Sequence record: SRR20825010_80
DNA: 63,135 bases
Direction: 5' to 3' (one strand)
The notes under the pieces are model-generated. The model did no database searches, was not told the DNA's origin, and was given only the letters and a program-made list of their open reading frames with translations. Made by a program: the position numbers and the translations under genes. Positions 8,974 to 63,135 of this stretch are shown here, piece by piece; the first letter of the stretch is position 1; each line of letters starts with the position of its first letter.

Positions 8974-11334
8974 TTAAAAATCTATCACCACACCAAAGGT
9001 TGGAATGGTAGAGCCATTATTGGTATCTGGAATTTCAATCAGATTTCTTGGCATTATCACTTCCCCATTATCATCCAAATCAAGTCCATACTGAGACGAT
9101 TGTGGTAATTTACTTCCTAACAAATTGGTTACTTCAATAAACAAGTTTAACGACCATTTGCTGTAATTCCATTTCTTATCAACCCTAATATCCAAAGAGT
9201 TATAAGCCCTTAGGCGCTCATTACCAAGTCTACCATAATCATTAATAATGGTTGGGTATGAATCCTCAGTAGCCTCAATATTAACAGGCACAAATGGAGC
9301 TTTACCGAGAAAGCGGTTTCTAACCCCAAGCTCCCAGCTACTATTCAGTTTATAACCACCTGTAAAGGTCAGTAAATGACGATTATCCCATAATGCTGGG
9401 CGGTAGCCTGTATCATTCAAGTCGGTATATTCGCTCCAAAATAGCGTATAAGCCAATATCCCGTAGAATCGTTTGTTCAGCTTTTGCTGATATAAAAGCT
9501 CCGCTCCATAGGCACGACCTTTCCCGATACTGGAAATATTTTCGCTACCAAACACTTCGAAATCTCCTCCCAAATTGGCCAAAGAAACTCCGTCTCTGAT
9601 GGATACTGGGTAGTTTTCGTAGCGCTTATAGAATCCTTCGATTGTGAATCGAGTAGATAACCTAGGCAAGTACTCTAAGCCCAAGACATAATGATCTGTC
9701 CGAATGTAATCGGCATCTTGGTTTACAAACTCCCCTGCATTGTTCTGGAAACCCAAAATGGTATAAGGAGGTATCTTGAAATAGCGTCCAGTGGCAGCAT
9801 TAAGTGTAAATTTCTCAGACAAACGATAGGCCAAGGAAAGCCGAGGTGAAAGGTGTGCAATGTCACTAAAGCCATTATCGATAAATGAATCAGCATCATT
9901 CCTAATTCCAAATGAGGCTTCTAACCTATTGTCGAAGAATGTTTTGGCAGCCTGTACAAAAAGCCCATACTTAAAGAAGTCTATCTCAGAATTAAAGTTA
10001 AGCCCATTATCATTGTCAAAAGTGGAATTCTCATAAGCCGACTTTTGAAGGTTTAAGCCATATGATAATGACCAATCCCCCAAAAATTTAGTGGCCTCAA
10101 CTCTCAACTTTTGCTCGGTCTCTCTAGCGTTATTACTGAACAGTAAGCCAGTTTCATTAATATTATCTTCATACCTCACAAAATCATTATTCAACACATT
10201 TGCACTCAGGGTTGTCCTTAAAAAACCATTGTTCATCTTGCGTTTCCAGCTGAACCCCAATGTGGAAGTCCACTGTTTGATAATGGCAATTTGATCTAAT
10301 GTTGCTTGTTGCTCTTCAGTAATGTCATCGGGAGTGTTTACACTAAAGTCATCAATAGAGCCTACGCCTATCAACGAGATTTCATTCTTATCATCAATCT
10401 TATAATCTACCTTGTATTGATAATCCCAATAATCGGGTAAAAACGGAAGGTCAATTAATTTGAAAAGGAATTGCAGGTAAGATCTTCTCGCAGAAATAAT
10501 GAAGGTAGTTTTCGCTTGTTCCTCTTCTTTAGGCAGAACCAATGGCCCTTCAAAAGTTAGAGCTGCTTCGCTTGCTCCTAATCTGAAATTGAGGTTCCTA
10601 TTGCGCGAATTTCCGTTACGTTGATTGAACTGCAACACTCCAGAAAGCGCATTATCATATTTGGCGGAAAACGAGCTGGTGCTCAGTGTAACATCTTCAA
10701 TAAACGATACATTGAGCAAACCCACTGGCCCACCAGCACTACCTTGCGTGGCAAAATGATTGATATTAGGAATCTCAACTCCATCTAAATAATATACATT
10801 CTCGCTTGGTGCACCTCCACGAATAATGATATCATTTCTAAAACCTACTGAACCAGAAACACCCGGCAAAGACTGGACGACTTTGGCGATATCGTTATTG
10901 CCGCCAGGGTATGTGGCAATTTCTTCTCTAGATAAATTCTGAATCGAGTTTGGGTTCTCTATTCTGGAGGGGAAAGGACTGGCCGTGACGACTACTTCAC
11001 CCAACTCATCCTGAACCTCTTCCAGCTCAAAGATTAATTCGGCATTACCGGCAGAACGGACAATCACATTGAATTTAACTTGAGGTTGAAAGCCCACAAA
11101 CCGAGCCTCCACTTTGTAGGTTTGCGTGGGTACCTTTTCAATTTTAAAAAAGCCATTAGCGTCTGTAACAGCTCCCAAACTGGTTTCTGCCAAACTCACA
11201 GTAGCTCCAATTAAAGGCTGTTGGTCTTTGGCCGAATAAACGTACCCCTGAAGCGTTGTTTGGGTTTGCCCAAATAGTTGAATAGAAAAGCTTAAGCCTA
11301 TAAGAAGGAAAGCAAAAAAACCTGATTTCATCAC
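8974..11334 (-). CDS. TonB-dependent receptor
   Basis: N-terminal CarboxypepD_reg-like domain, plug motif LPGV...IIIRGG...YYLDG, C-terminal Phe. Confidence 0.92.
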   Translation of the reverse strand: MMKSGFFAFLLIGLSFSIQLFGQTQTTLQGYVYSAKDQQPLIGATVSLAETSLGAVTDANGFFKIEKVPTQTYKVEARFVGFQPQVKFNVIVRSAGNAELIFELEEVQDELGEVVVTASPFPSRIENPNSIQNLSREEIATYPGGNNDIAKVVQSLPGVSGSVGFRNDIIIRGGAPSENVYYLDGVEIPNINHFATQGSAGGPVGLLNVSFIEDVTLSTSSFSAKYDNALSGVLQFNQRNGNSRNRNLNFRLGASEAALTFEGPLVLPKEEEQAKTTFIISARRSYLQFLFKLIDLPFLPDYWDYQYKVDYKIDDKNEISLIGVGSIDDFSVNTPDDITEEQQATLDQIAIIKQWTSTLGFSWKRKMNNGFLRTTLSANVLNNDFVRYEDNINETGLLFSNNARETEQKLRVEATKFLGDWSLSYGLNLQKSAYENSTFDNDNGLNFNSEIDFFKYGLFVQAAKTFFDNRLEASFGIRNDADSFIDNGFSDIAHLSPRLSLAYRLSEKFTLNAATGRYFKIPPYTILGFQNNAGEFVNQDADYIRTDHYVLGLEYLPRLSTRFTIEGFYKRYENYPVSIRDGVSLANLGGDFEVFGSENISSIGKGRAYGAELLYQQKLNKRFYGILAYTLFWSEYTDLNDTGYRPALWDNRHLLTFTGGYKLNSSWELGVRNRFLGKAPFVPVNIEATEDSYPTIINDYGRLGNERLRAYNSLDIRVDKKWNYSKWSLNLFIEVTNLLGSKLPQSSQYGLDLDDNGEVIMPRNLIEIPDTNNGSTIPTFGVVIDF

Positions 11335-38275: not shown

Positions 38276-39157
38276 ATGATTGAACTACCAGTAATTTCCA
38301 AAGAAAAAGATACCAGAAGAAAAAAACCGGATTGGTTGCGTGTAAAACTTCCTATTGGTGAAGAATACGCCAAAGTTCGTAAGCTGGTTGATCAATATAA
38401 ACTTCATACCATTTGCGAAAGCGGTAATTGCCCAAATATGGGGGAATGCTGGGGAGCAGGTACTGCTACGTTTATGATTTTAGGCAATGTGTGTACCCGA
38501 AGCTGCTCGTTTTGCGCAGTAGCCACAGGTCGTCCACCAGAATACGATACCGAAGAGCCTAAAAGAGTAGCCGAAGCGATTAAGTTGATGGGTGTTAAGC
38601 ACGCTGTACTTACTTCTGTAAACAGAGATGAGCTAAAAGACCGAGGCGCAGAGATCTGGTACCAAACGGTAGTAGAAACCAAAAAATTAAGCCCTGAAAC
38701 AACCATAGAAACACTTATTCCTGATGTTAAAGGGAATTGGGACGCCTTATACAGAATGATCGATGCAGGTCAGGAAGTGGTTTCACACAACATGGAAACT
38801 GTTGAAGAGCTTTATAGAAGGGTTCGCCCTCAGGCCAAATACGCTAGGAGCTTAGAAGAATTAAAACGTATTAAGGAATACGGCAAGCGTTCTAAATCTG
38901 GTGCCATGTTAGGTTTAGGCGAAACTGACGAACAAGTATTCAGATTGATGGATGATTTGGCCGAAGTAAAGCTTGATATTTTGACTTTAGGCCAGTATTT
39001 GCAGCCTACCAAAATGCACCATGAAGTAATTGAATACGTTCACCCTGATAAGTTTGAATTCTTTAAAGAAGAAGGGCTGAAGCGAGGAATCAAATATGTA
39101 GAATCTGGCGCATTGGTTAGGTCATCGTATCACGCAGAAAGACACGTTCACGTATAA
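38276..39157 (+). CDS. lipA: Lipoyl synthase
   Basis: [35 protein letters not shown]. Confidence 0.97.
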
Positions 39158-39186
39158 GAAAAGAGGCGCCAATGGCGCCTCTTTTC
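39158..39186. terminator. Bidirectional intrinsic terminator
   Basis: GAAAAGAGGCGCC-AAT-GGCGCCTCTTTTC. Confidence 0.9.
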
Positions 39187-39205
39187 ATTTATCAATTGTC
39201 GGCTT

Positions 39206-39736
39206 TTAGAAAACTCTAATCCACACACCAGGTATCCAAACTCGAATACCACCTATAACGCTGTAGCGACCATCTTGCCATCGGTGATAGTCACGTTTCA
39301 TAGTCCAGTGACCAGAAACCCAAACATCCCTTCTCAGCCTTCTATTGTATTCCCAGTAGCCGTTTACCCAAATATGTCTGCTGCTAGGGGCAGCACTTCT
39401 ATAAACTACATTCCGTCTTCCATTTCTAAAATCATAGTCGTAATATGAGTTGTTAACTCTTTTCCAATTATTGTCTCTTCTTGAATCTGTGTAACGGTAG
39501 CCGTTATTTCGAACCACCACTTTTTTCACTACAGTTTCTGTCCTCCCGTTTCGGGTAGTTCTAGTGTTGTAAACTTTCTTACGATCATCGTTTCTTCCAC
39601 GATTATCATCTCGTTTTTCAACTTTACTTTTACCTCGGTTGTTTCGGCTATCATTACTTCGCCTCTGAGCCTGTATCTCTCCTTCGGCAAAAAGCCCAAC
39701 CACCATAATTCCTACAAACAGTATTACTCTTTTCAT
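39206..39736 (-). CDS. Secreted Arg-rich protein with WxxGxW (YXWGXW-like) repeats
   Basis: Signal peptide, low-complexity R/N/D region, WVNGYW, WVSGHW, WQDGRY, WIPGVW. Confidence 0.8.
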   Translation of the reverse strand: MKRVILFVGIMVVGLFAEGEIQAQRRSNDSRNNRGKSKVEKRDDNRGRNDDRKKVYNTRTTRNGRTETVVKKVVVRNNGYRYTDSRRDNNWKRVNNSYYDYDFRNGRRNVVYRSAAPSSRHIWVNGYWEYNRRLRRDVWVSGHWTMKRDYHRWQDGRYSVIGGIRVWIPGVWIRVF

Positions 39737-53553: not shown

Positions 53554-54033
53554 TTACAATAGCGACTTCACCCTATCATACATAGATTTTTCATCCAGCG
53601 CGGATTCTATGTTCTTTATGTCGTCTAGGAAGTTTTCTTTGCTATCTATTAAAAGTTGATCATTGGCCTTCTTGATTTTCCCCCAAAGGCCTTCCATTTT
53701 ACCCACCAATTCAATTCCAGTATCGCTCAATTTTAAAAGGCGCTTTCTTTGGTCGGCTTCATCTTTCGATTCGATCACCAACTTTTTCTTCACTAAAATA
53801 TTGGCTACTTGATTTACTGCGGGGTGGGTTTGTTGTAAGCTGGCCGCCAATTCTGTCACGGCAAGTTCTTCCCCATTCTTTAGGGCATACACTACAGCGA
53901 ACCAACGGGGTTCAAAATCGAAGTCAGATTCTTTATAAATAGCGGCCACATCTTTGGCCAACCGCTCACTTAAGTTTTTCAGGCGAGTAGCCAAAGCTAA
54001 ACTGCCCAACTCTTCAATTATATTCCTTTCCAA
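53554..54033 (-). CDS. MarR-family transcriptional regulator
   Basis: LALATRLKNLSE, FEPRWF, THPAV, D.RKRLL.LS; TTG start. Confidence 0.88.
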   Translation of the reverse strand: MERNIIEELGSLALATRLKNLSERLAKDVAAIYKESDFDFEPRWFAVVYALKNGEELAVTELAASLQQTHPAVNQVANILVKKKLVIESKDEADQRKRLLKLSDTGIELVGKMEGLWGKIKKANDQLLIDSKENFLDDIKNIESALDEKSMYDRVKSLL

Positions 54034-54331
54034 TTATTTCTTCTTTTTGGGAAGAAGCAATATTTTCATTCCCGTTGATCAATTTATTTCCAGCCAATTA
54101 CCTCCTCAAAACTCTTTTTGGCCTCGCAAATATCTATCCAATGCCTGGCTCCCTTGCGCCTTACTTTCTTCTAGAATAAATATTTAATGCGAAGATAATA
54201 CAGAAACCACGAATCGAAGGGTGATTTTTTACCTAAGGTCAGATGATATGAATTAAGGTGTTGGTCAATTTGTACGGTCAAAATATATACAAGCTGTTAA
54301 CTTTTGTATCTTGATCTCAAACTCTAGATCA

Positions 54332-54856
54332 ATGGCACACAAAACTAAATACCTTTTGTTTCTCTTTATTATTCTTTCGGTATTTCCCTCTTGCGAGACG
54401 GATGATGAGGATGACAATGAGCACGCTACCGAAGAAGTTGTTCGTTTTGAAAGAGAGGGGTCTTCCATTCTAAAAGGAGTGAAAGTACCTGCAGGAAAAA
54501 GCATCTATTTTGCCAGTGGTATAGTGGCCAACCCAAAAGACGAAAGCAAGCCCGAAGGCGACCGCGAGCGATTTGGAAACACCTATGAACAAAGCGTGAG
54601 CACCTTAGAGCGAATTGCGGATTATTTGGGCGAAGAAGGTTTGGGTTTAGAAGATGTAGTAGCAATGAAAGTATATGTTGCCCCCGACCCAGAAAACGAC
54701 AACAAACCTGATTTCGATGGCTGGTTTAAAGCTTATGCTGAATTCTTCGCAACGGAAGAAAACCCCAATAAAGTAGCGAGATCGACCATTGGCGTGTATA
54801 CTTTGGTGAATCCCAATATGTTTATTGAGGTGGAGGTAAGGGCGGTTTATAAGTGA
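54332..54856 (+). CDS. RidA/YjgF-family lipoprotein
   Basis: Lipobox FPSC, SG, T.EQ, ARSTIGV..L, IEVE; ATG at 54332. Confidence 0.85.
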   Translation: MAHKTKYLLFLFIILSVFPSCETDDEDDNEHATEEVVRFEREGSSILKGVKVPAGKSIYFASGIVANPKDESKPEGDRERFGNTYEQSVSTLERIADYLGEEGLGLEDVVAMKVYVAPDPENDNKPDFDGWFKAYAEFFATEENPNKVARSTIGVYTLVNPNMFIEVEVRAVYK

Positions 54857-54866
54857 TCGTTTAGGG
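54756..54866 (+). repeat. Direct repeat copy 1 (RidA gene 3' end plus 10 bp)
   Basis: Aligns with 56258..56366 at about 90% identity. Confidence 0.92.
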
Positions 54867-54922
54867 TTTGACCTCTGAACTATAGGATATGTTTCTTAAG
54901 GGCTGTTGTGCGTTTGTATATT

Positions 54923-56005
54923 TTAATTTTCTAGAATGTCCATTAATTTTTGGTTCAGGTATAATTTTTCTTTCCCTACTCTTATTGACTTAAGAAACCC
55001 TTTTTCCTCTAATGCTATCAAATAGTTCCCTACTGTTTTTGGTGTTCCTAAATCAATGTCAATTAGGTTTTGTCTTTTGGTATATGGAAACTTAAAAATG
55101 ACTTCGACCAAATCTTTGGAATAAACTTTAGGTAGTTTTTCTTTTATTTCTTGACTAGTTCTGTCCATTAGCTGAATTATAGACTCGAGTCTATTTAGTC
55201 CACTAGCGGCTGTTTTTTCTACCATATCTAACATGTAGAGCACAAAAAATGACCAATCATTTTTTTCAGTTACCGCTCTTAGGCCTTGGTAGTATTTGTC
55301 TTTATGCTTAATGATATAATCACTTAAAAATAGCGCTGGTATATCAAGTAACTGTTCGAGTTTAAGTTGAAGTAGTAGCAGAATACGACCTGTTCTTCCG
55401 TTACCATCGGCAAATGGATGAATGGCTTCAAATTGGTAATGTGATATTGCCATTTTAATCAGTGGGTCTATTGATCTATTTTCATTGATGAAAATCTCCA
55501 GATTAGCCATTTTGTCTCTTATGACTTGTTCTCCTGTTGGCGGAGTATAGATAACGTCTCCTTTTGCATTGGATAGCATAGTTCCAGGTGTAGTTCTTAT
55601 GCCTGCAGAATTTTGTTTAATACACTGAACAAGCTCTAAACAAAGGTTTGTTGTAATGAAAGGCTGTTTTTCAAGAAGTTTAAAGCCTAGCCAAATAGCT
55701 TCTTTATAACTGATGACCTCTTTTGTCGCTGGATTATCGAATTTTTTATCAGCAACAACAGATTGATATAAGTCGTCATTTGTAGTTATAATATTCTCAA
55801 TTTCAGAACTGGCTTTTGCTTCTTGAAGGTGAAGCGTGTCAAGAAATAAACTTGGATTGGGCAAGTTTCTTATTGCGCCATTTAATTGAGCTAAAGCTCT
55901 ACTAGCTTTAATGGTTTTAGTTAAAATTTCTTTGGTTTCTAAATCTGCCTTGGGCGGAAGTAGAGGGAGGCTGTTAAACGGTTTTGATTTATCGAAGCTA
56001 TTCAT
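54923..56005 (-). CDS. Class II Fic protein (SoFic-like) with C-terminal HTH
   Basis: HPFADGNGRTGR catalytic motif, inhibitory SSEIEN motif, YTPP, C-terminal wHTH-like segment. Confidence 0.93.
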   Translation of the reverse strand: MNSFDKSKPFNSLPLLPPKADLETKEILTKTIKASRALAQLNGAIRNLPNPSLFLDTLHLQEAKASSEIENIITTNDDLYQSVVADKKFDNPATKEVISYKEAIWLGFKLLEKQPFITTNLCLELVQCIKQNSAGIRTTPGTMLSNAKGDVIYTPPTGEQVIRDKMANLEIFINENRSIDPLIKMAISHYQFEAIHPFADGNGRTGRILLLLQLKLEQLLDIPALFLSDYIIKHKDKYYQGLRAVTEKNDWSFFVLYMLDMVEKTAASGLNRLESIIQLMDRTSQEIKEKLPKVYSKDLVEVIFKFPYTKRQNLIDIDLGTPKTVGNYLIALEEKGFLKSIRVGKEKLYLNQKLMDILEN

Positions 56006-56010
56006 AAATA

Positions 56011-56097
56011 AGAGTAAGCTTTACACTTGTTATTACTACAAGGGTAAAAATAATAAAAAATTACCCTTATTCCTATATGGAAGGTAGGTTTTACTCT
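56011..56097. promoter_or_regulatory. Putative operator array upstream of fic
   Basis: AGAGTAA/TTACACT, AGGGTAA/TTACCCT, AAGGTAG/TTACTCT starting at 56011, 56021, 56041, 56061, 56081, 56091. Confidence 0.5.
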
Positions 56098-56257
56098 CGT
56101 TTTTTCGAATGAGGCATTAGGGTACATGTAAGCTAAGTAAGGGGCAAAGTGGTTTGCCGTGAAGCATGAAATATTCGTCCTGATTTTGATTGACAAATTC
56201 GACTCATAAAAAGTTAGCTTGCTTAGAACTCGGCCGATGACAAGTACTCTGGAGCCC

Positions 56258-56366
56258 AAGAAAACCCCAATAAAGTATCAAGACGACCATTGGCGTTTAT
56301 ACTTTGGTGAATCACGACATGTTTATTGAGGTGGAAGTAAGGGCGGTTTATCAGTGATCGTTAGGG
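56258..56366 (+). pseudogene. Displaced, frameshifted copy of the RidA gene 3' end (direct repeat copy 2)
   Basis: ENPNKVSR/TIGVYTLVNHDMFIEVEVRAVYQ* with a 1-bp deletion. Confidence 0.9.
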
Positions 56367-56371
56367 CTTCA

Positions 56372-56395
56372 TGATAGTATCATTTGATACTATCA
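56372..56395. repeat. Perfect 11-bp inverted repeat
   Basis: TGATAGTATCA-TT-TGATACTATCA. Confidence 0.85.
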
Positions 56396-56429
56396 ATGAT
56401 AAGGCTTTCTAAGAAGTTGGGCGTTTTTT

Positions 56430-56563
56430 ATGTGGTGTAATGCTCTGGCTATGTGCAGTGCGGGATTGAAAAGTACTAAACTTTCGGTTTTGCACTGACC
56501 TTTGATATATGTTTTATCTTTCGCTTTATAACTCAAACCGCTATTACTAATACACATAGTTTT
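56430..56563 (-). mobile_element. attC-like site 3 (decayed)
   Basis: Minus strand AAC-TAT-GTGTATTAGTAATAGCGG...AACCGAAAGT...CCGCACTGCACATAGCC-AGAGC-ATT; shares AACCGAAAGT with site 1. Confidence 0.55.
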
Positions 56564-57571
56564 TTATTTCCAAGTCACTTTTTTTAATTCTTCCGCTATC
56601 AATTCAGTGTTGTTATAGTCGGTTATTGTCAAATAATCTCTTAAATCTTTGTACCTATAGCCTTGTATTCCTCCGTGCGATATTTTTCTGAAATCGGTAT
56701 CATAGGTTTTGTCTTCTGGAAGGACATAGTACTTTAAACCAAATTGGTCTTCTCCTAATTCAGACAAACCGTTTTTTAGTCGGTCAATTTGTTTGTCTGT
56801 ATGTCCTTTACTATGAATATTTAGGTCGTTTGTACTTGCGTCATAATCAGCAATTATTGTGGTTTCAATTTCCGAGATTGTTCTTACAGATTTCCAGTTA
56901 TATAAACCGAAAAATTTAAATTTCTGACTGTGCCAACTAGTTGGACAGTAATATATTTTATGGGCTTTATTCCAACTATGCGAGAAACCTGTTGGCGCAA
57001 ATAGGACTTTGTATTCTTCATTTGAGATTAAATTACTGCTTATGCAATAATTACTGAAATCGTCAAGAAGTAACCTTAACTCCATATCGTGAGTATTCTC
57101 CTCATAAATCCCTTCTAGGTTATCAATTAAGTCATTAAATATTAAATTGTTAAACTGGATTTTTAGGTTTGAGTATGTTTCTTTTAATCTTCTGTTTATC
57201 TCTACAACTTCTTTTTCTTCAAATTTGACTGAACTTAAATGCCATAGTTGATTTTGACTGTTTTCATTGAATACTTCTCCATATTTTACCAGTTTACCAA
57301 TAAACTCTTTACTGTTTAATTTCGTTTCAATTATTATTTTGGAAGGCTTAACTTCTATATGACCATCAATGATACCTTTCTTCATTCCAACCTGTTGTCT
57401 AAAAATTGGTCGAGGATAGTAATATTGCTCAATGCTTCCTTCATTCAGTCGTTCTATAATTGATTTGTAATATTCAACGTTTAGGTCGTTTAACCTTGAT
57501 AGCATTAATAAGACGTTGTTTGTAACAGTATTTTCTTTCTGTGAATATTTTTGAAATTGACTTATTCTCAT
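56564..57571 (-). CDS. Hypothetical protein with PD-(D/E)XK-like nuclease N-terminus
   Basis: EN..TNN helix, Q, IDGHI...IIIETKL; AT-rich. Confidence 0.6.
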   Translation of the reverse strand: MRISQFQKYSQKENTVTNNVLLMLSRLNDLNVEYYKSIIERLNEGSIEQYYYPRPIFRQQVGMKKGIIDGHIEVKPSKIIIETKLNSKEFIGKLVKYGEVFNENSQNQLWHLSSVKFEEKEVVEINRRLKETYSNLKIQFNNLIFNDLIDNLEGIYEENTHDMELRLLLDDFSNYCISSNLISNEEYKVLFAPTGFSHSWNKAHKIYYCPTSWHSQKFKFFGLYNWKSVRTISEIETTIIADYDASTNDLNIHSKGHTDKQIDRLKNGLSELGEDQFGLKYYVLPEDKTYDTDFRKISHGGIQGYRYKDLRDYLTITDYNNTELIAEELKKVTWK

Positions 57572-57585
57572 TTTTTGGTCAAATT

Positions 57586-57657
57586 AGTTTCAACGTTCCG
57601 GCTAAAAAGCGTTGCTATCCCGAAGGACAGCTATGAGTTTTAGCCATTTTTGGCAGC
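57586..57657 (-). mobile_element. attC-like site 2 (short)
   Basis: Minus strand GCCAAA-AAT-GGCTAAAA...GCTGTCC-TTCG-GGATAGC...TTTTAGCC-GGAAC-GTTGAAA filling the intergenic gap. Confidence 0.65.
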
Positions 57658-57658
57658 T

Positions 57659-58549
57659 TTATTTTTTCTTTACAATTGGATGATTAAGACCATTGACATA
57701 GTTTTCAATGATTTCGAACCTGTCTTGTTTATCAAGTAACTCAGAAAGATTATTGAATCCATATTTTCTTGGATGAAAATCAGGGTCAATTTTCTTTATT
57801 TCAATTCCGATTTTTGCAAGATGCGGTTCTTCACTATTTATGGAGGCTCTTTGAAATGCTTCGTCAATCAATAGACTAAGCTCTTTTTCGCCAAAGTCAG
57901 CAATTGAATATTTTTTGGCAGGGCCTTCATTTGCTTCATTAATTAAACGTTTTCTTTTTAATCGAATTAAGTCACGTGTTATAACTGGAATGCTCACCCC
58001 GAGTTTTTCGGATATTTCAGGAGAAGTGAGTTTGACTTCAGCATTTCGTAGTGTGTTTAATATTTTCAATTGGAACTGCGTTACAGGAACAGAATCATTT
58101 TCAGACTGTTGGATTAAGTCTTCCGTATTCTCCTGGCTGATATTTACTTGATCTGTTATTATCCGAAACTGCTCATCGAACAACTGCTTTATTTGATTTT
58201 TTTCTTCTGAACCAATTGAGGTTATTTCATCTGATACTCTTTTAATCAAATTGCTTTTCACATTTTCAAGTTGATCACTTATATCATCAAAGTCTTGAGA
58301 GACCAATACACCTTTATTGTTTTTTATAGCGGCATCGAGTGTTTTGTCAAACATTCCCCCAATTTGGGTCTGAATAGAAGCGGTTTTTTCCTCGATTTTA
58401 ATAAGTGCCTTATTCGCGCTATCCTGAAGGTTTACACCATCTCTATAAAATTTTAGAGATGCAAAAAATCCTACAATCGTGATTATTAGCGCAATTAGCC
58501 CCAAAATTAAAGACACAATTGCAAGAGTATCTCCTAAATCTATGTACAT
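57659..58549 (-). CDS. Membrane-anchored protein with winged HTH and C-terminal OST-HTH/LOTUS domain
   Basis: N-terminal TM, coiled coil, LTSPEISEKLGVSIPVITRDL..L, LAKIG..IKKIDPDFHPRKYGFNNLSELL. Confidence 0.75.
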   Translation of the reverse strand: MYIDLGDTLAIVSLILGLIALIITIVGFFASLKFYRDGVNLQDSANKALIKIEEKTASIQTQIGGMFDKTLDAAIKNNKGVLVSQDFDDISDQLENVKSNLIKRVSDEITSIGSEEKNQIKQLFDEQFRIITDQVNISQENTEDLIQQSENDSVPVTQFQLKILNTLRNAEVKLTSPEISEKLGVSIPVITRDLIRLKRKRLINEANEGPAKKYSIADFGEKELSLLIDEAFQRASINSEEPHLAKIGIEIKKIDPDFHPRKYGFNNLSELLDKQDRFEIIENYVNGLNHPIVKKK

Positions 58550-58565
58550 CGTTTTATTTTTATTG

Positions 58566-58704
58566 AGGCTAACGGTTAGTATATGAAAATTAGGCGATTA
58601 CGAAGCACGCACTTTCGGTTAAACACCAAGTTTGTTGATACGAGCCTAAAGCCTTGAATTTAGCACTAATTCGTCTATTTTTTATATACATTGTTATGGG
58701 CTGG
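58566..58704 (-). mobile_element. attC-like site 1 (intact)
   Basis: Minus strand GCCCATAAC-AAT-GTATATAAAAAATAGACGA...TCGCCTAATTTTCATATAC-TAACC-GTTAGCC; 19-bp arms. Confidence 0.75.
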
Positions 58705-58712
58705 CTTTACTT

Positions 58713-60896
58713 TCACGTTAGTTTTTTTACGTCTGCGAACAATATTTTTAAATGATCGTCTGTCAAATCCATTAATGGTTCATACATAAATGAGTTTATG
58801 TGAATGTTTTCTGCTGTCATTAAATTAACTCTGTCTAAAACCCCTATGTTATCAGTCTCTGTCGGAAATTCCATTCTGTATTTTTCGACAATACTACCTG
58901 TTTGCTTTTTTAGTATATGATTATGAAAGTTAGGGTCAACAATTTTTGAAATCATAAACCTTTCAGCTTTAAGTCTTATTGCAATTGAAATGCATATTTT
59001 AAACTTTATGTCCAGAGGATTTCCATCTGCGAGATTGTAGATTTCTTCTGCCTTGCTATTGATTAAGTCGAAAACAATAATTGCTGAATTTACTTTTGTC
59101 TTTGTTTGCTGAAAAGTTGAATTGAAAATATCTAAAACGGACTGAACTGTTATTTCTTCGGTCTTAGCAATTCCATTAACGGCTCTCTCTGGCTTCATAT
59201 GAAGTAATGAAGTCAAAAGAAGATAACTGTCGTTATCGTCTCCAATTGTGAAATCAATTAAGTTTCTGACAAATGGAATACAAGCAATAAATGTAAAATC
59301 GCAATTATCATAATTGCTTCTTAGAATTGGAAAGACATCCTTTTTTTCCCCTATTGTGAGTTCTATTTCTCCCGAATTTCTCGTTGTTGTCCAATTCCCT
59401 TGGTAGTTAATTTTTGCTCCCAATCTGCTTTTGATAGTCTTGTAAAAATCGAAATTGTGAGTTAAGACAATCATAAAGAAATGAGGGTCGTCTAAAACAT
59501 CCTTTAAATATTCGATTATTGCATATTTGTTTTTGTAGTCAAATGAGTCTGCGATATCGTCAACAATTACAAGCTGGTTTTTCTTAAGTTTCTTTCTCGT
59601 CTCAATTTGAAAAATAATATTTAAAAGATAGAAAACTCTTTGTTCTCCTGTGCTTAAAGATTGTTGTAATTCTGCTCCTCCTAACAATTTTGTATCATCA
59701 GGTCCTGTGCCGTCTGTGTACTTAAATAATAATGAGGCAGGTTCGCTATTTAAAATTACATCTTCTTGATTTTTAATATGTACTTCAAAAGGAACAGTAA
59801 ATCTTCGTTTAAAAATATCGATTACTTTTTTCCAATCATCTTGCTCCTGTTTTGCTTCCTGTACAATTTTTTCTCTTTGCTCTGAAGTATCTTTATGAAG
59901 TTTTGAAAGAACATTAAACTCGCTTTTAAATTTTGTCAAATAGTTTATTATGAGCTTCTTTTTGAAGTTTATTAAATCTGCAAACTCCTTAATGATTTCC
60001 TGATTTTCTTCAATGTAACTTCTAAACTTTCTTAGTTCTGCATTACTATTAAGTGATTTGTCAATTTCATTAAATTTGCTTGCCAAAGCAGGGTCTTTAA
60101 GAACTTTTTCTTTTTCGTTGAAAATTAGTTCCTCCAATTCTTTGGCATTTGTAATTTCTTGTTCTTTAATTTTTACTCTGTGATTAGCAGAAAAGAAGTT
60201 ATTGTCTTTGAGTGATTTTGTAACGGTATCTGCATTATAGTGATTAAATGTTCCCTTCATAAAAAGAGAGTTATTTTCATTTACAAGCGTGTCATAGACT
60301 TCTATGTATTCTCTTATTTTTGATTTAAAATCCCTGCTTTCGAGAAACTTTACGGATTTGTCATTGAAAACTTCTGAATACTGAATATTTGAATATATCG
60401 GTTCTTTTATCTCGTTTATTTCTGTGTGGTAAGTTTCAAACGTTTTAAATAAATCTTGTTTGAATACTGACTCAATTTCACTTTCTACTTGGTTACTCCT
60501 AATGCCAAATGACGGTTGAATTTGTTTTAGAAACTCAATTTTTGATTCGTTCAGTTTGGAATTTATTGTATCATAGTCAGCTTTAAGCTTTTGATTTGCA
60601 AGAATTGTTGAAGCTTCTTTGAACTCTGCTGATTTCATTCTTTGAATGACAAAAATTTCGTCTTGTTCAATATCAACCCCATCAACTTTTACTTGTCTGT
60701 GATTTACTCTGTGCGAAAAGATTCTGTCTTTTGAAACCTTCCCTTCTGCAATATCTTCCATTGTCAAAGCAAGTGAGGATTTCATTACTCCATTTGGTGC
60801 ATAAATAAGCTGTGTTTTTGATTCGCCAAAATTGAATTTATGTTTGAACCGTCTTATTCCGTAACAGTTTTCTAAGTGGATTTCTAATTCTATCAT
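58713..60896 (-). CDS. ABC/SMC-like ATPase (AAA_13/RloC-like architecture) with long coiled coil
   Basis: Variant Walker A YAPNGVMKSS, signature LSTGEQR, Walker B IVDDIADSFD, H-loop LTHNFDF. Confidence 0.8.
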   Translation of the reverse strand: MIELEIHLENCYGIRRFKHKFNFGESKTQLIYAPNGVMKSSLALTMEDIAEGKVSKDRIFSHRVNHRQVKVDGVDIEQDEIFVIQRMKSAEFKEASTILANQKLKADYDTINSKLNESKIEFLKQIQPSFGIRSNQVESEIESVFKQDLFKTFETYHTEINEIKEPIYSNIQYSEVFNDKSVKFLESRDFKSKIREYIEVYDTLVNENNSLFMKGTFNHYNADTVTKSLKDNNFFSANHRVKIKEQEITNAKELEELIFNEKEKVLKDPALASKFNEIDKSLNSNAELRKFRSYIEENQEIIKEFADLINFKKKLIINYLTKFKSEFNVLSKLHKDTSEQREKIVQEAKQEQDDWKKVIDIFKRRFTVPFEVHIKNQEDVILNSEPASLLFKYTDGTGPDDTKLLGGAELQQSLSTGEQRVFYLLNIIFQIETRKKLKKNQLVIVDDIADSFDYKNKYAIIEYLKDVLDDPHFFMIVLTHNFDFYKTIKSRLGAKINYQGNWTTTRNSGEIELTIGEKKDVFPILRSNYDNCDFTFIACIPFVRNLIDFTIGDDNDSYLLLTSLLHMKPERAVNGIAKTEEITVQSVLDIFNSTFQQTKTKVNSAIIVFDLINSKAEEIYNLADGNPLDIKFKICISIAIRLKAERFMISKIVDPNFHNHILKKQTGSIVEKYRMEFPTETDNIGVLDRVNLMTAENIHINSFMYEPLMDLTDDHLKILFADVKKLT

Positions 60897-60931
60897 TTAT
60901 TTCAATTGTGTCGGTTATTGTTTTTCAGCTT

Positions 60932-61031
60932 GCCCATAACATTATGTATCAGTCACTTTTTATGCCTTATACCCATAAATATATTCATTTTTATGACTGA
61001 ACTACCTAGTATATCATTTATATCAGTCACT
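60932..61031 (-). mobile_element. attI-like array head site
   Basis: Minus strand TGATAC-ATAAT-GTTATGGGC without a long hairpin; 11-bp direct repeat TATCAGTCACT at 60947 and 61021. Confidence 0.55.
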
Positions 61032-61169
61032 GCTAAGGAATAGGAGCTTGGTTTTGAGGTAACTTTCTACATTTTGCTTTTCTTTTTATTTTGATTCCTT
61101 TGTATCAAGAATACAGCAATCTTTGGAAGAGAGTATTAATACAACAACATCCATCTTTTAGTCGAAAAC

Positions 61170-62972
61170 ATGAAACTAAGAAACCTAACCATAGCCTTAC
61201 TGAGCTTCTTGGCCATCAGCCTACAAGCCCAAACCTACAACGAATACGAACTTTCGTTTGATAATGCAGTGCACCACGAAGCCAATATTAAAATCAAGTT
61301 CAGCAACTTAGAAAACAAAGTATTGGAAGTGCGCATGAGCCGCAGTTCACCCGGCCGTTATGCGGTGCATGAGTTTGCCAAAAACGTGTACAACGTTAAG
61401 GCCACGGACAGTAACGGAAAGGCCCTACCTATTACCAGAGAAAACCCTTATCAGTGGAATGTCGCTGGACATAACGGCACAGTCAACTTTGAATATACGC
61501 TTTATGCCAACCGTGCTGGCGGTACTTATTCTGGTATTGACGAAAGCCACGCCCACCTCAACATGCCCGCTACTTTGGCTTGGGCCAGAGGTTTAGACCA
61601 ACGGCCGATAAAAGTAAAGTTCAATGTAAGGGAAGACAGAAACTGGAAAGTAGCTACTCAACTTAAAGATTTGGGCAATAATACATTCTACGCGCCAAAC
61701 ACTTATTACTTAATGGACAGCCCAACTGAAATTGCTGATTTGTATTTCAGAGAAAGAAATGTAGATGGACAAACCATTCGTTTGGCCTTGCATAAAGACG
61801 GCACTACCGATGCAGAAGTGGATGCTTATTTCGAAGAAACCATGGGCATTGTTATGCAGCAAAAAGCGGTTTTTGGCGAATTGGCTACTTACGATTTTGG
61901 CCAGTACACTTTCCTTTCTTGCTATATGCCCAACGCCAGTGGCGATGGTATGGAGCACCGAAACTCAACTTATGTGGTGAGCGGATTGCCAGTCGAAAGA
62001 CCATTGGCCTCCACCTCAATGGGCACCATGTCGCATGAATTTTTCCATAGCTGGAATGTGGAGCGCATTCGCCCTAAATCGTTAGAACCTTTCAGTTTTG
62101 AAGACGCCAACATGTCGGGTGAATTGTGGTTTGCCGAAGGATTTACAAGTTATTACACCGCCTTAATGCAGGCGCGTTCTGGAAGCATTTCAGCCGAACA
62201 ATATATAAATGGTTTGGGCGGAAGTGTAGGTTATGTGGTTAATGCCCCAGGCAGAAATTTCCATAACCCCATTGAAATGAGCTATCAAGCACCATTTGTT
62301 GATGCTGCCACTTCCATTGACCCCACCAACTTGAGCAATATTTTCATTTCTTACTACACTTATGGTTCGGTGTTGGGCTTGGCGCTAGATATGTCTTTAC
62401 GCACTATGGACAATGATAAAAACTTAGATGATTACATGAAATACGTTTGGCAGAAGCACGGCAAAACGGAAATTCCTTACACCGTTCGCGACTTACAGGC
62501 CCGAATGGCTGAATATGCCGGAGAAAGCTTCGCTAATGAGTTTTTCGGAAAATACATTTTGGACAGTCAAATGCCAGATTACGCCAGTTTGTTCAAGAAA
62601 ATGGGCGTAACCTACACTAATCGAGCGGAAGGCCGTGCAAGCATAGGCGGCAACATTCGCAACCAAAGAGGAGGCTGGCAACTGACAGGCAACGCTACAG
62701 TAGGGTCGCCAATTTATAAAGCGGGTGTAGAATCTGAAGATGTGATTTTGAGCATTGCAGGTACTACTTTAACTGATGACTCTAACATCAACGAAATTAT
62801 TGCAGCACATAAACCGGGCGATACTATTGAGATTAAGTACCGCAAAATTTGGGGCGAAGAAAAAACTTCGAAGCTTACCTTGGAAGAAGCTCAAGCATGG
62901 TCAACCGCTATGGACGCCAATGCGGATGCCAAGGCAAAAGCCAGAAGAGAGGCTTGGTTGAGGAAGAGGTAG
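61170..62972 (+). CDS. M61 glycyl aminopeptidase with PDZ domain
   Basis: Signal peptide, SPGRY, GMEHRNS, SHEFFHSWNVERIRP, LWFAEGFTSYY, C-terminal PDZ. Confidence 0.93.
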   Translation: MKLRNLTIALLSFLAISLQAQTYNEYELSFDNAVHHEANIKIKFSNLENKVLEVRMSRSSPGRYAVHEFAKNVYNVKATDSNGKALPITRENPYQWNVAGHNGTVNFEYTLYANRAGGTYSGIDESHAHLNMPATLAWARGLDQRPIKVKFNVREDRNWKVATQLKDLGNNTFYAPNTYYLMDSPTEIADLYFRERNVDGQTIRLALHKDGTTDAEVDAYFEETMGIVMQQKAVFGELATYDFGQYTFLSCYMPNASGDGMEHRNSTYVVSGLPVERPLASTSMGTMSHEFFHSWNVERIRPKSLEPFSFEDANMSGELWFAEGFTSYYTALMQARSGSISAEQYINGLGGSVGYVVNAPGRNFHNPIEMSYQAPFVDAATSIDPTNLSNIFISYYTYGSVLGLALDMSLRTMDNDKNLDDYMKYVWQKHGKTEIPYTVRDLQARMAEYAGESFANEFFGKYILDSQMPDYASLFKKMGVTYTNRAEGRASIGGNIRNQRGGWQLTGNATVGSPIYKAGVESEDVILSIAGTTLTDDSNINEIIAAHKPGDTIEIKYRKIWGEEKTSKLTLEEAQAWSTAMDANADAKAKARREAWLRKR

Positions 62973-63135
62973 TTATTGGTTAAGGGGGGGGGTGGTTAGG
63001 ACGCTGTTTGTGCTTAAATTATTGGTAAGTAGTTAAATTATCATTGGTTTTCTTCTATAAATAAGCTCCTAATGAAAAACTACCCTCGGTAACAATTATA
63101 TGCACACTGCTTTTCATCCTGATTTCTATGACAAT

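Follow-up and report, generated by a model that had tools for sequence, protein, structure and literature searches.

The 63-kb stretch SRR20825010_80 carries, at 56432-61032, three AT-rich genes in one orientation, each followed by an imperfect hairpin that runs from an AAC triplet to a GTT triplet, and the question is whether these hairpins are DNA recombination sites and the genes the cassettes of a gene-capture system. By "the window" we mean the entire stretch, of which the array occupies the part just given. The original prediction had proposed a Bacteroidota-type integron-like cassette system, and that proposal is supported by the matches of the three sites to a covariance model (R2), by arrays that lie beside a recombinase gene in related genomes, by the crossover rule that these arrays obey, and by breakpoints at GTT triplets. 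We consider it highly probable that this part of the window is an array of three cassettes that has no recombinase of its own and is part of an integron-like system for gene capture in Bacteroidota. The system works like an integron but falls outside the integron family when that family is delimited by its integrase.

The geometry that had been predicted for the sites, AAC and a spacer of three nucleotides (nt) on one side and five nt and GTT on the other, with AAA in site 2 and ATT in site 3, is present in the letters. Site 1 reads AAC, AAT, arm, arm, TAACC, and GTT, and site 2 reads AAA (for AAC) and AAT, then GGAAC and GTT. The motif that sites 1 and 3 had been said to share, AACCGAAAGT, occurs exactly in those two sites alone within the 63 kb searched (two exact among 10 matches at ≤1 mismatch), and site 3 aligns with site 1 over its whole length, with 64 invariant columns. 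Site 1 was matched at an unrelated place in G001, the nearest genome compared, and BLAST found copies of it with 75-85% identity in 11 of 31 related genomes. A first covariance model, R1, was built from twelve such close copies; being narrow, it scored site 2 at only 15.6 bits and missed site 3 at E ≤ 10, and it was replaced by R2, built from 37 sites that R1 had collected in arrays of five other genomes and containing no window sequence. When the whole window was scanned with R2 on both strands with filters off, the three predicted sites ranked first to third, all on the gene strand (site 1 at E 1e-26), and the next-best match reached 19.3 bits. Because R2 descends from BLAST relatives of site 1, this ranking is independent evidence for sites 2 and 3 only; the match of site 3 includes many non-standard pairs. 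A GC-rich hairpin at 39137-39209 of the window, with T runs on both sides, scored 19-21 bits with both models and looks like a bidirectional terminator, that is, a chance-level match.

The organism itself has further copies of the hairpin, as indicated by sequencing run X8, which covers 0.92 of the stretch and in which the site 1 hairpin is multi-copy, with a depth of 126 versus approximately 5 and with other flanks. Run X9, apparently from the same strain or one nearly identical to it and of low depth, showed no polymorphism, and the uncovered parts in runs X1, X3, and X9 were not counted as evidence. One joint in X8 (55441 to 56041, side 23) and one in X3 were too weak and were left unused.

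Beyond the window, the sites form one structured family. R1 matches (E ≤ 0.001) occurred in 114 of the 151 sampled genomes of the family to which G001 belongs and in 100 of the 132 genera; one of the 114 genomes, G141, is unpublished, and without it the count is 113/150. The consensus fold of the twelve copies (RNAalifold) has 35 pairs, nine of which show compensatory changes. Among the 37 aligned sites, AAC was kept in 36-37 and GTT in 35-37, and the spacer asymmetry of three and five nt, which had been called non-canonical, holds exactly across the family. The sites resemble attC sites in being imperfect hairpins of variable length with an AAC and GTT core: the long forms measure approximately 139 nt and the short forms 63-76 nt, and short forms also occur inside the arrays of other genomes. 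They cluster on a single strand at a spacing of one or a few genes, with at least 16 same-strand sites in one 20-kb stretch. Some of the sites at 9713, 10988, 18699, and 3547 of locus L054 carry a different central segment between conserved arms. In one array, three sites share the 5′ box and the interior but not the 3′ flanks, which suggests duplicated cassette ends.

In relatives, the arrays adjoin a co-oriented Xer/IntI-like tyrosine recombinase gene. A search with an alignment of four array recombinases found 575 relatives in public genomes, and the loci of the best 80 were surveyed. All 80 were titled Bacteroidota (among them Flavobacterium, Cyclobacterium, Pedobacter, Pelobium, and Chitinophaga-labelled and Bacteroidales metagenome-assembled genomes), and 110 of the 111 R2 matches in them lay downstream of, and co-oriented with, the recombinase gene, with at least one such match in 40 of the 80 loci. 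Many of the contigs carrying a recombinase locus end within approximately 1 kb past the gene, as would be produced by repeated hairpins breaking short-read assemblies, so arrays are probably under-counted in draft genomes. In G109, the recombinase gene (L059/L064, G109:C1:4.64 Mb) lies away from the arrays of that genome (2.70-2.72 Mb) and is followed by a second tyrosine recombinase gene (269 amino acids, aa) and then by an open reading frame (ORF) of 391 aa. Within the array region of L053 (4839-5206, G092:C15), Rfam detected domains of a group II intron (D1-D4-3, 43.8 bits; D1-D4-1, 35.2 bits), opposite in strand to the cassettes and close to another tyrosine recombinase gene; an association of such introns with classical attC sites is known, according to the portion of PMC7923331 consulted.

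If cutting and joining take place at GTT, each 5′ box is required to complement the letters past the GTT of the previous site, and not its own 3′ flank. We compared these over 12 positions, by reverse complement, in 32 consecutive site pairs. The 5′ box agreed with the previous site's 3′ flank at a mean of 8.97/12 positions, with at least 11 in 14/32 pairs; with its own 3′ flank, the mean was 6.03/12 and no pair of the 32 reached 11, and random pairs gave a mean of 5.68/12, with at least 11 in 21/2000. All 14 best pairs had a single mismatch, at position 11, with A opposite C, and the low-scoring pairs were mostly several kb apart, with weaker sites between them. In these arrays, then, the first letters of a cassette are complementary to the 5′ box of that cassette's own site, the signature of integron crossover. 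The start of the array fits the same rule: in 20 of 21 named loci, the 5′ box of the first site matched a GTT+7 stretch located 78-107 nt past the recombinase gene. The attI regions of the relatives, which thus stand beside the recombinase gene at the start of the array, consist of a locus-specific motif in forward, inverted, and forward orientation, followed by ATA-rich letters and GTT. The G/TT crossover rule, part of the original prediction, holds in the arrays and also for the first cassette of the window, cassette A, whose first letters complement the 5′ box of site 1 at 12/14 positions (5/12 for site 1's own flank).

Cassette A carries gene A, residues 1-726 of which match positions 1-718 of 719 of the PADLOC PDC-S46 profile PDLC05023 (E 3.6e-241). 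No Pfam or NCBIfam family was found for it, and it is a candidate anti-phage protein of the PDC-S46 type. The prediction that the array holds defence-type genes thus stands for gene A; for gene C it amounts to a PD-(D/E)XK lead. Homologues of gene A were found in 1 of 401 genomes of the family and at 40 metagenome loci, and in 7 of the 41 loci scanned (L174, L175, L177, L186, L187, and L189 from metagenomes, and L173, the copy in genome G139) R2 sites abut the homologue. A BLASTN alignment of the window with L174, L175, and L177 covers only 60946..58692, that is, GTT to AAC plus one base, and a 2297-nt soil-metagenome contig aligns to 58694-60940, with unlike sequence at both ends. The hairpins that follow the copies of cassette A belong to other subfamilies: the unit in L174 stands between other hairpins, and in L175 and L177 it is followed by another hairpin sequence. 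These limits indicate that the recurring unit runs from GTT to AAC and that the hairpin interior does not travel along; in an integron, the whole attC moves with its gene. Judging from these alignments, cassette A is a mobile element that moves as a unit with base-exact ends.

The locus itself was compared between the window and three further genomes, G001, G188, and G008. As the original prediction had anticipated for strain differences between the RidA-family gene and the M61 peptidase gene, the four share the locus and differ from the GTT at the start of cassette A onward, diverging exactly at GT(T); at the same triplet, the similarity to the metagenome copies of cassette A begins. Beyond it, the window has PDC-S46 and genes B and C; G001 has a trypsin-like gene and a Zn-peptidase-like gene (L006 3185-4984); G188 has an Upx-like gene of 1253 aa (PADLOC E 2.3e-50) and then SoFic (L091 2383-6144); and G008 has three different genes. 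Towards RidA, the 3′ half of the last site and the flank past it are common to the window, G188, and G001. From its gene content, the locus appears to behave as a defence-gene hot spot across the genus.

The 96 nt ahead of cassette A (61032..60937) end in GTT and have the same forward-inverted-forward architecture as the attI regions of relatives. This P element is conserved with G001 at the same locus and recurs within the genus, where 8 genomes out of 36 each have 1-6 matches, and no recombinase lies beside it in the window. By analogy, we read it as a putative orphan attI-like landing pad. It contains a box resembling what we take to be the Bacteroidota -7 promoter motif and may include a promoter. 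A copy in L004 was considered as a recombinase-linked element and rejected: the gene preceding it encodes an ABC/SMC-like ATPase, not a recombinase.

These comparisons bear on the possibility that the hairpins are miniature inverted-repeat transposable element (MITE)-like or repetitive extragenic palindrome (REP)-like repeats spread by a transposase, at a hot spot of defence islands whose content homologous recombination between core genes has reshuffled. In its favour, the hairpin of site 1 is multi-copy, copies of it recur across genera at the identity given above, a census counts many "MITEs" in Bacteroidota and their phages (PMC11602168, in the portion consulted), and the segment carrying SoFic is flanked by 113-bp repeats of the RidA gene end, which suggests homologous recombination. 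The strict orientation bias of the sites relative to the genes and the recombinase gene and their spacing at one or a few genes speak against such repeats. It is flanks of adjacent sites that are complementary, not the two sides of a single site, so these are not target duplications, and where genomes diverge they do so at GTT and AAC triplets and not inside core genes. We regard this explanation as very unlikely; the census may include these same hairpins under another name.

Still less likely, in our judgement, is that the hairpins act at the RNA level, in the transcripts of the cassettes (for example as terminators, as stabilisers of the 3′ end, or as a motif like Flavo-1), and not as DNA recombination sites. 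Their position would suit that role, since the sites begin 0-8 nt past the stop codons, and site 2, with its UUCG-type loop and run of T, was the one call of a terminator that a simple scan made on the gene strand within 54000-63135. RNA folding z-scores for the three intergenic stretches were -0.20, -2.64, and -2.03: site 2 folds as an RNA (z -2.64), and the stretch of site 1 folds no better than its shuffles (z -0.20), and such statistics are by themselves weak as evidence on the sites. Against an RNA function, an A opposite a C inside the stem of the gene-sense strand was invariant (37/37 sites), with a second A/C in 30/37, and these mismatches become G/T pairs on the antisense strand, which folded better in 34/37 sites with RNA parameters and in 32/37 with DNA parameters. 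The overlap with Flavo-1 that had been suggested was not borne out, and no other Rfam family accounts for the sites: there was no match at the gathering threshold in the window, no Flavo-1 match at E ≤ 10 in 55900-61200 (where only spurious snoRNA and lncRNA matches appeared), and no family that matched the hairpins of the five array loci (89 kb of arrays). An RNA role would also leave unexplained the complementarity of the 5′ box to the start of its own cassette and the link of the sites to the recombinase gene. The hairpins may have a secondary role as terminators.

The enzyme found at the head of the arrays resembles integron integrases but falls short of the integrase model. The best matches to the integron integrase model TIGR02249 in G139, G092, and G123 adjoin arrays on the same strand, but the array recombinases reached 200 and 214 bits, with a cut-off of 265, with two stretches matched and the middle absent, and none of the five array-bearing genomes searched had a match above the cut-off. 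In an alignment with VchIntIA (2a3v), one array recombinase has 15 residues where IntI has 57, showing that the IntI-specific insertion is absent. The combination by which IntegronFinder recognises an integrase, PF00589 with the IntI-specific C-terminal insertion, was thus found neither in the window nor in the recombinases of relatives. The XerA-type NCBIfam model NF040815 was just exceeded in relatives (224.2 bits in G092 and 223.2 in G139; cut-off, 220). In sequence, the best matches of the array recombinase were archaeal XerA (PDB 4a8e and 5hxy; phmmer E 7e-42 and 3.9e-40), and in fold (full-length structure model, predicted local distance difference test [pLDDT] 83.4), XerA (Foldseek E 1.2e-16 and 3.1e-16) and VchIntIA (2a3v; E 3.9e-16) matched about equally well. 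The N-terminal 95 residues, modelled alone (pLDDT 68.8), had as best matches the N-domain of T4 UvsW (Z 6.9) and the N-terminal domain of XPB (Z 6.7 and 6.3), with Z 3.8 for the HARP domain of SMARCAL1, where Z < 8 is common by chance, and Pfam HARP matched the G139 recombinase at 25.3 bits (cut-off, 25). HARP, UvsW-N, and XPB-type domains bind branched DNA, and the modelled domain offers a possible lead as to how a hairpin might be recognised without the IntI insertion.

A window with at least two same-strand sites and no integrase near them (here, three sites in 63 kb) corresponds, by analogy and with classical attC status assumed, to a cluster of attC sites lacking an integron integrase (CALIN) as defined by Cury et al. 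2016 (PMC4889954) and IntegronFinder 2.0 (PMC9024848), as far as the portions consulted show. That the array is a remnant of a classical integron, with ordinary attC sites and a true IntI elsewhere in the genome, is the least likely of the explanations considered and hardly credible: although the layout and the G/TT crossover rule are of the integron type and a review lists Bacteroidota among the integron-bearing phyla (PMC8618304, in part), the recombinases fall short of TIGR02249 and lack the insertion, no array-bearing genome searched has a match above that cut-off, the classical purine is kept only at the fourth base of the 3′ box (37/37 sites; 12/37 at the fifth), and the IntegronFinder 2.0 survey (PMC9024848) gives for Bacteroidetes, in the portion consulted, only In0 elements and one complete integron, in Salinibacter ruber.

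Several observations weigh against reading the interval as an integron-like array, and most of them concern its second and third cassettes. Sites 2 and 3 score low, at approximately 30 bits each with rough E-values, and site 2 is terminator-like. The complementarity of ends seen for cassette A is absent from cassettes B (6/12) and C (4/12; random mean, 5.68). The prediction that homologues of the three genes would be bounded by such sites was true of gene A only: gene C has homologues in 6 of the 401 genomes, none of the six with a site nearby, and a 72%-identical homologue shares the coding sequence only; for gene B, none of the 401 genomes searched yielded a homologue. On the side of the last site, the 3′ arm is conserved between genomes and the 5′ arm and loop differ (window 56360-56480, L091 6165-6300, L006 2945-3085), indicating either a breakpoint inside the hairpin or a long-to-short deletion. 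G008 has three genes at the locus with no detectable site, and the junction in G188, judged by eye, has no end complementarity. The homology of cassette A ends at AAC and not past the hairpin, which the classical one-crossover G/TT model does not predict; this could reflect the use of either strand, an exchange at both ends, or hairpins becoming homogenised within a genome. Neither an excised circle nor an empty site was observed. Finally, a recombinase acting in trans has to be supposed in the organism of the window, with none in the 63 kb: as had been predicted, no integrase was found there, either by tblastn with two array recombinases (best E 0.6) or with a profile of four recombinases, which matched 0/191 stop-to-stop frames.

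The products of the two weaker cassettes are also less clearly related to defence. Gene B matches Pfam OST-HTH (OST-HTH/LOTUS, E 5.2e-10) and HTH_11 (winged-helix, E 6.2e-5), with weak PADLOC matches of the CasR/Csa3-type winged-helix kind and a best atlas score of only 0.82. Gene C scored 0.98 in the atlas against clusters automatically named PD-(D/E)XK nuclease superfamily, and no Pfam, NCBIfam, or PADLOC family was found for it; it is possibly a PD-(D/E)XK-type nuclease, which serves as a lead only. The possibility that B and C form a two-gene unit was considered and rejected: the island genes of G001 are unrelated to either, and homologues of gene C occur without gene B.

Table 1. Coordinates of the array, its cassettes and sites, and the adjoining genes in the window
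Feature	Position	Strand	Remarks
M61 peptidase gene	61170..62972		borders the array
Orphan attI-like "P element" (putative)	60941..61032	-	motif forward, inverted, forward, then ATAAT; directly before the junction GTT
Junction GTT, start of cassette A	60938..60940	-	similarity to G001, G188, and G008 ends; similarity to metagenome copies of cassette A starts
Cassette A unit, GTT to AAC	58693..60940	-	carries gene A
Gene A	60896..58713	-	727 aa
Site 1, intact long-form attC-like hairpin	58564..58704	-	130.8 bits (R1), 108.9 bits (R2)
Gene B	58549..57659	-	296 aa
Site 2, short form	57585..57660	-	5′ core AAC changed to AAA; 30.1 bits (R2), E 1.2e-5
Gene C	57571..56564	-	335 aa
Site 3, decayed long form	56432..56570	-	broken stems, 3′ core ATT; 29.9 bits (R2), E 1.4e-5
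Conserved flank past the last site, RidA-side array end	56370..56446	-	common to window, G001, and G188 at the same locus
Duplicate of RidA gene 3′ end	56258..56369	+	direct repeat of 54756-54868, 90-92% identity; same arrangement in G188
SoFic gene, beyond the array	56005..54923		PADLOC E 7e-110
RidA-family gene	54311..54856		borders the array

The array lies between the RidA-family gene and the M61 peptidase gene (Table 1), in a region (approximately 54800-61000) with a GC content of 0.28-0.36, compared with 0.38-0.48 in the flanks, and its three genes, as had been stated, are AT-rich and all on the minus strand. The distances from each GTT to the next ATG are 41, 21, and 20 nt. SoFic lies on a 1.5-kb segment flanked on both sides by the RidA 3′ end (approximately 100 nt) and the sequence downstream of it, at 90-92% identity. 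A pseudo-RidA end followed by SoFic is also found in G188, and G001 is without the SoFic segment. The segment looks like a separate insertion at the RidA 3′ end, made with no hairpin site taking part, through recombination that was either homologous or site-specific, and the duplicated end would be the mark of the original RidA end that adjoined the array. An ORF of 54 aa at 56393-56557 on the minus strand, which falls wholly within site 3 plus flanking sequence and matches no family, is unlikely to be a gene.

Taken as an integron-like array, the interval would have arisen as follows. Each cassette consists of a promoterless gene followed by a hairpin site made up of a 5′ box ending in AAC, a 3-nt spacer, a long imperfect stem, a 5-nt spacer, GTT, and a 3′ box. 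A recombinase encoded elsewhere in the genome would fold the strand antisense to the genes and catalyse strand exchange at the conserved GTT/AAC triplet, presumably through circular intermediates, and the cassettes would be inserted at the orphan attI-like element ahead of the M61 peptidase gene, which might also supply a promoter. The newest would then be cassette A, intact and beside the attI-like element, and B and C, with their decayed sites, would be older. That the first cassette is intact and the later ones are decayed would fit insertion at the attI-like end.

A broader proposal, to which we give even chances, is that Bacteroidota carry a second kind of integron that standard surveys miss. 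Its Xer-like recombinase, devoid of the IntI insertion, would read the hairpins through an N-terminal domain of the branched-DNA type. It would also serve scattered orphan attI-like pads, each perhaps with a promoter, dropping defence genes such as PDC-S46 ahead of core genes, and gene units (GTT to AAC) and hairpin modules would re-assort at both hairpin ends. We found no description of this hairpin-cassette system of Bacteroidota in the portions of the literature searched.

Among the carriers of the system are named species of Flavobacterium, Cyclobacterium, Pedobacter, and Pelobium, and if the proposal is true, a large phylum of soil, water, and gut bacteria shuffles accessory and anti-phage genes by a route that current tools miss. 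In textbooks, integrons are the device by which Proteobacteria capture genes. The existence of a parallel system with a simpler recombinase would alter the picture of integrons as near-absent from Bacteroidetes that emerges from the consulted portion of PMC9024848. The window provides a worked example, in which one defence gene moves as a unit with base-exact ends and an insertion site stands without a neighbouring recombinase. With the site model, new defence genes could be sought among thousands of cassettes that lack annotation, and the re-assorting of gene units and hairpin modules, if real, would make the origin of cassette recombination sites directly testable.

Compared with known systems, the arrays share most with integrons: promoterless single genes, each followed by an imperfect AAC ... 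GTT hairpin, arranged in one orientation; an attI-type site beside a tyrosine recombinase gene; a 5′ box complementary to the start of its own cassette; an antisense strand that folds better; and clusters without a recombinase. They differ from integrons in that the recombinase lacks the IntI-specific insertion, has an extra N-terminal domain, and is co-oriented with the cassettes, the array beginning approximately 100 nt past its stop codon. The box complementarity extends to GTT+7 and is followed by the conserved A/C mismatch, and the strand asymmetry, which in attC sites comes from extrahelical bases, comes here from A/C mismatches that are G/T on the other strand. Moreover, orphan attI-like elements occur at several chromosomal places, and copies of one cassette share GTT to AAC only, with unlike hairpins. 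Integrons with an integrase co-directional with the cassettes are found in Treponema, some Chlorobi, and cyanobacteria; these resemble the present arrays in the orientation of the recombinase gene but are reported to have a true IntI and classical attC sites. Xer enzymes act on a single double-stranded dif site to resolve chromosome dimers, whereas the array recombinase, although archaeal XerA is its best sequence match and its fold matches XerA and IntI about equally, heads cassette arrays and has an added N-terminal domain. With the sedentary chromosomal integrons that carry anti-phage cassettes (bioRxiv 10.1101/2024.07.02.601686), a report whose consulted portion mentions Bacteroidota for a defence system and among the clades previously found integron-free, the arrays share compact defence genes, represented here by the single-gene candidate PDC-S46 and, at the same locus in neighbouring genomes, by Upx-like and SoFic genes; those integrons use a Vibrio-type IntI, whereas the arrays described here are headed by an Xer-like recombinase.

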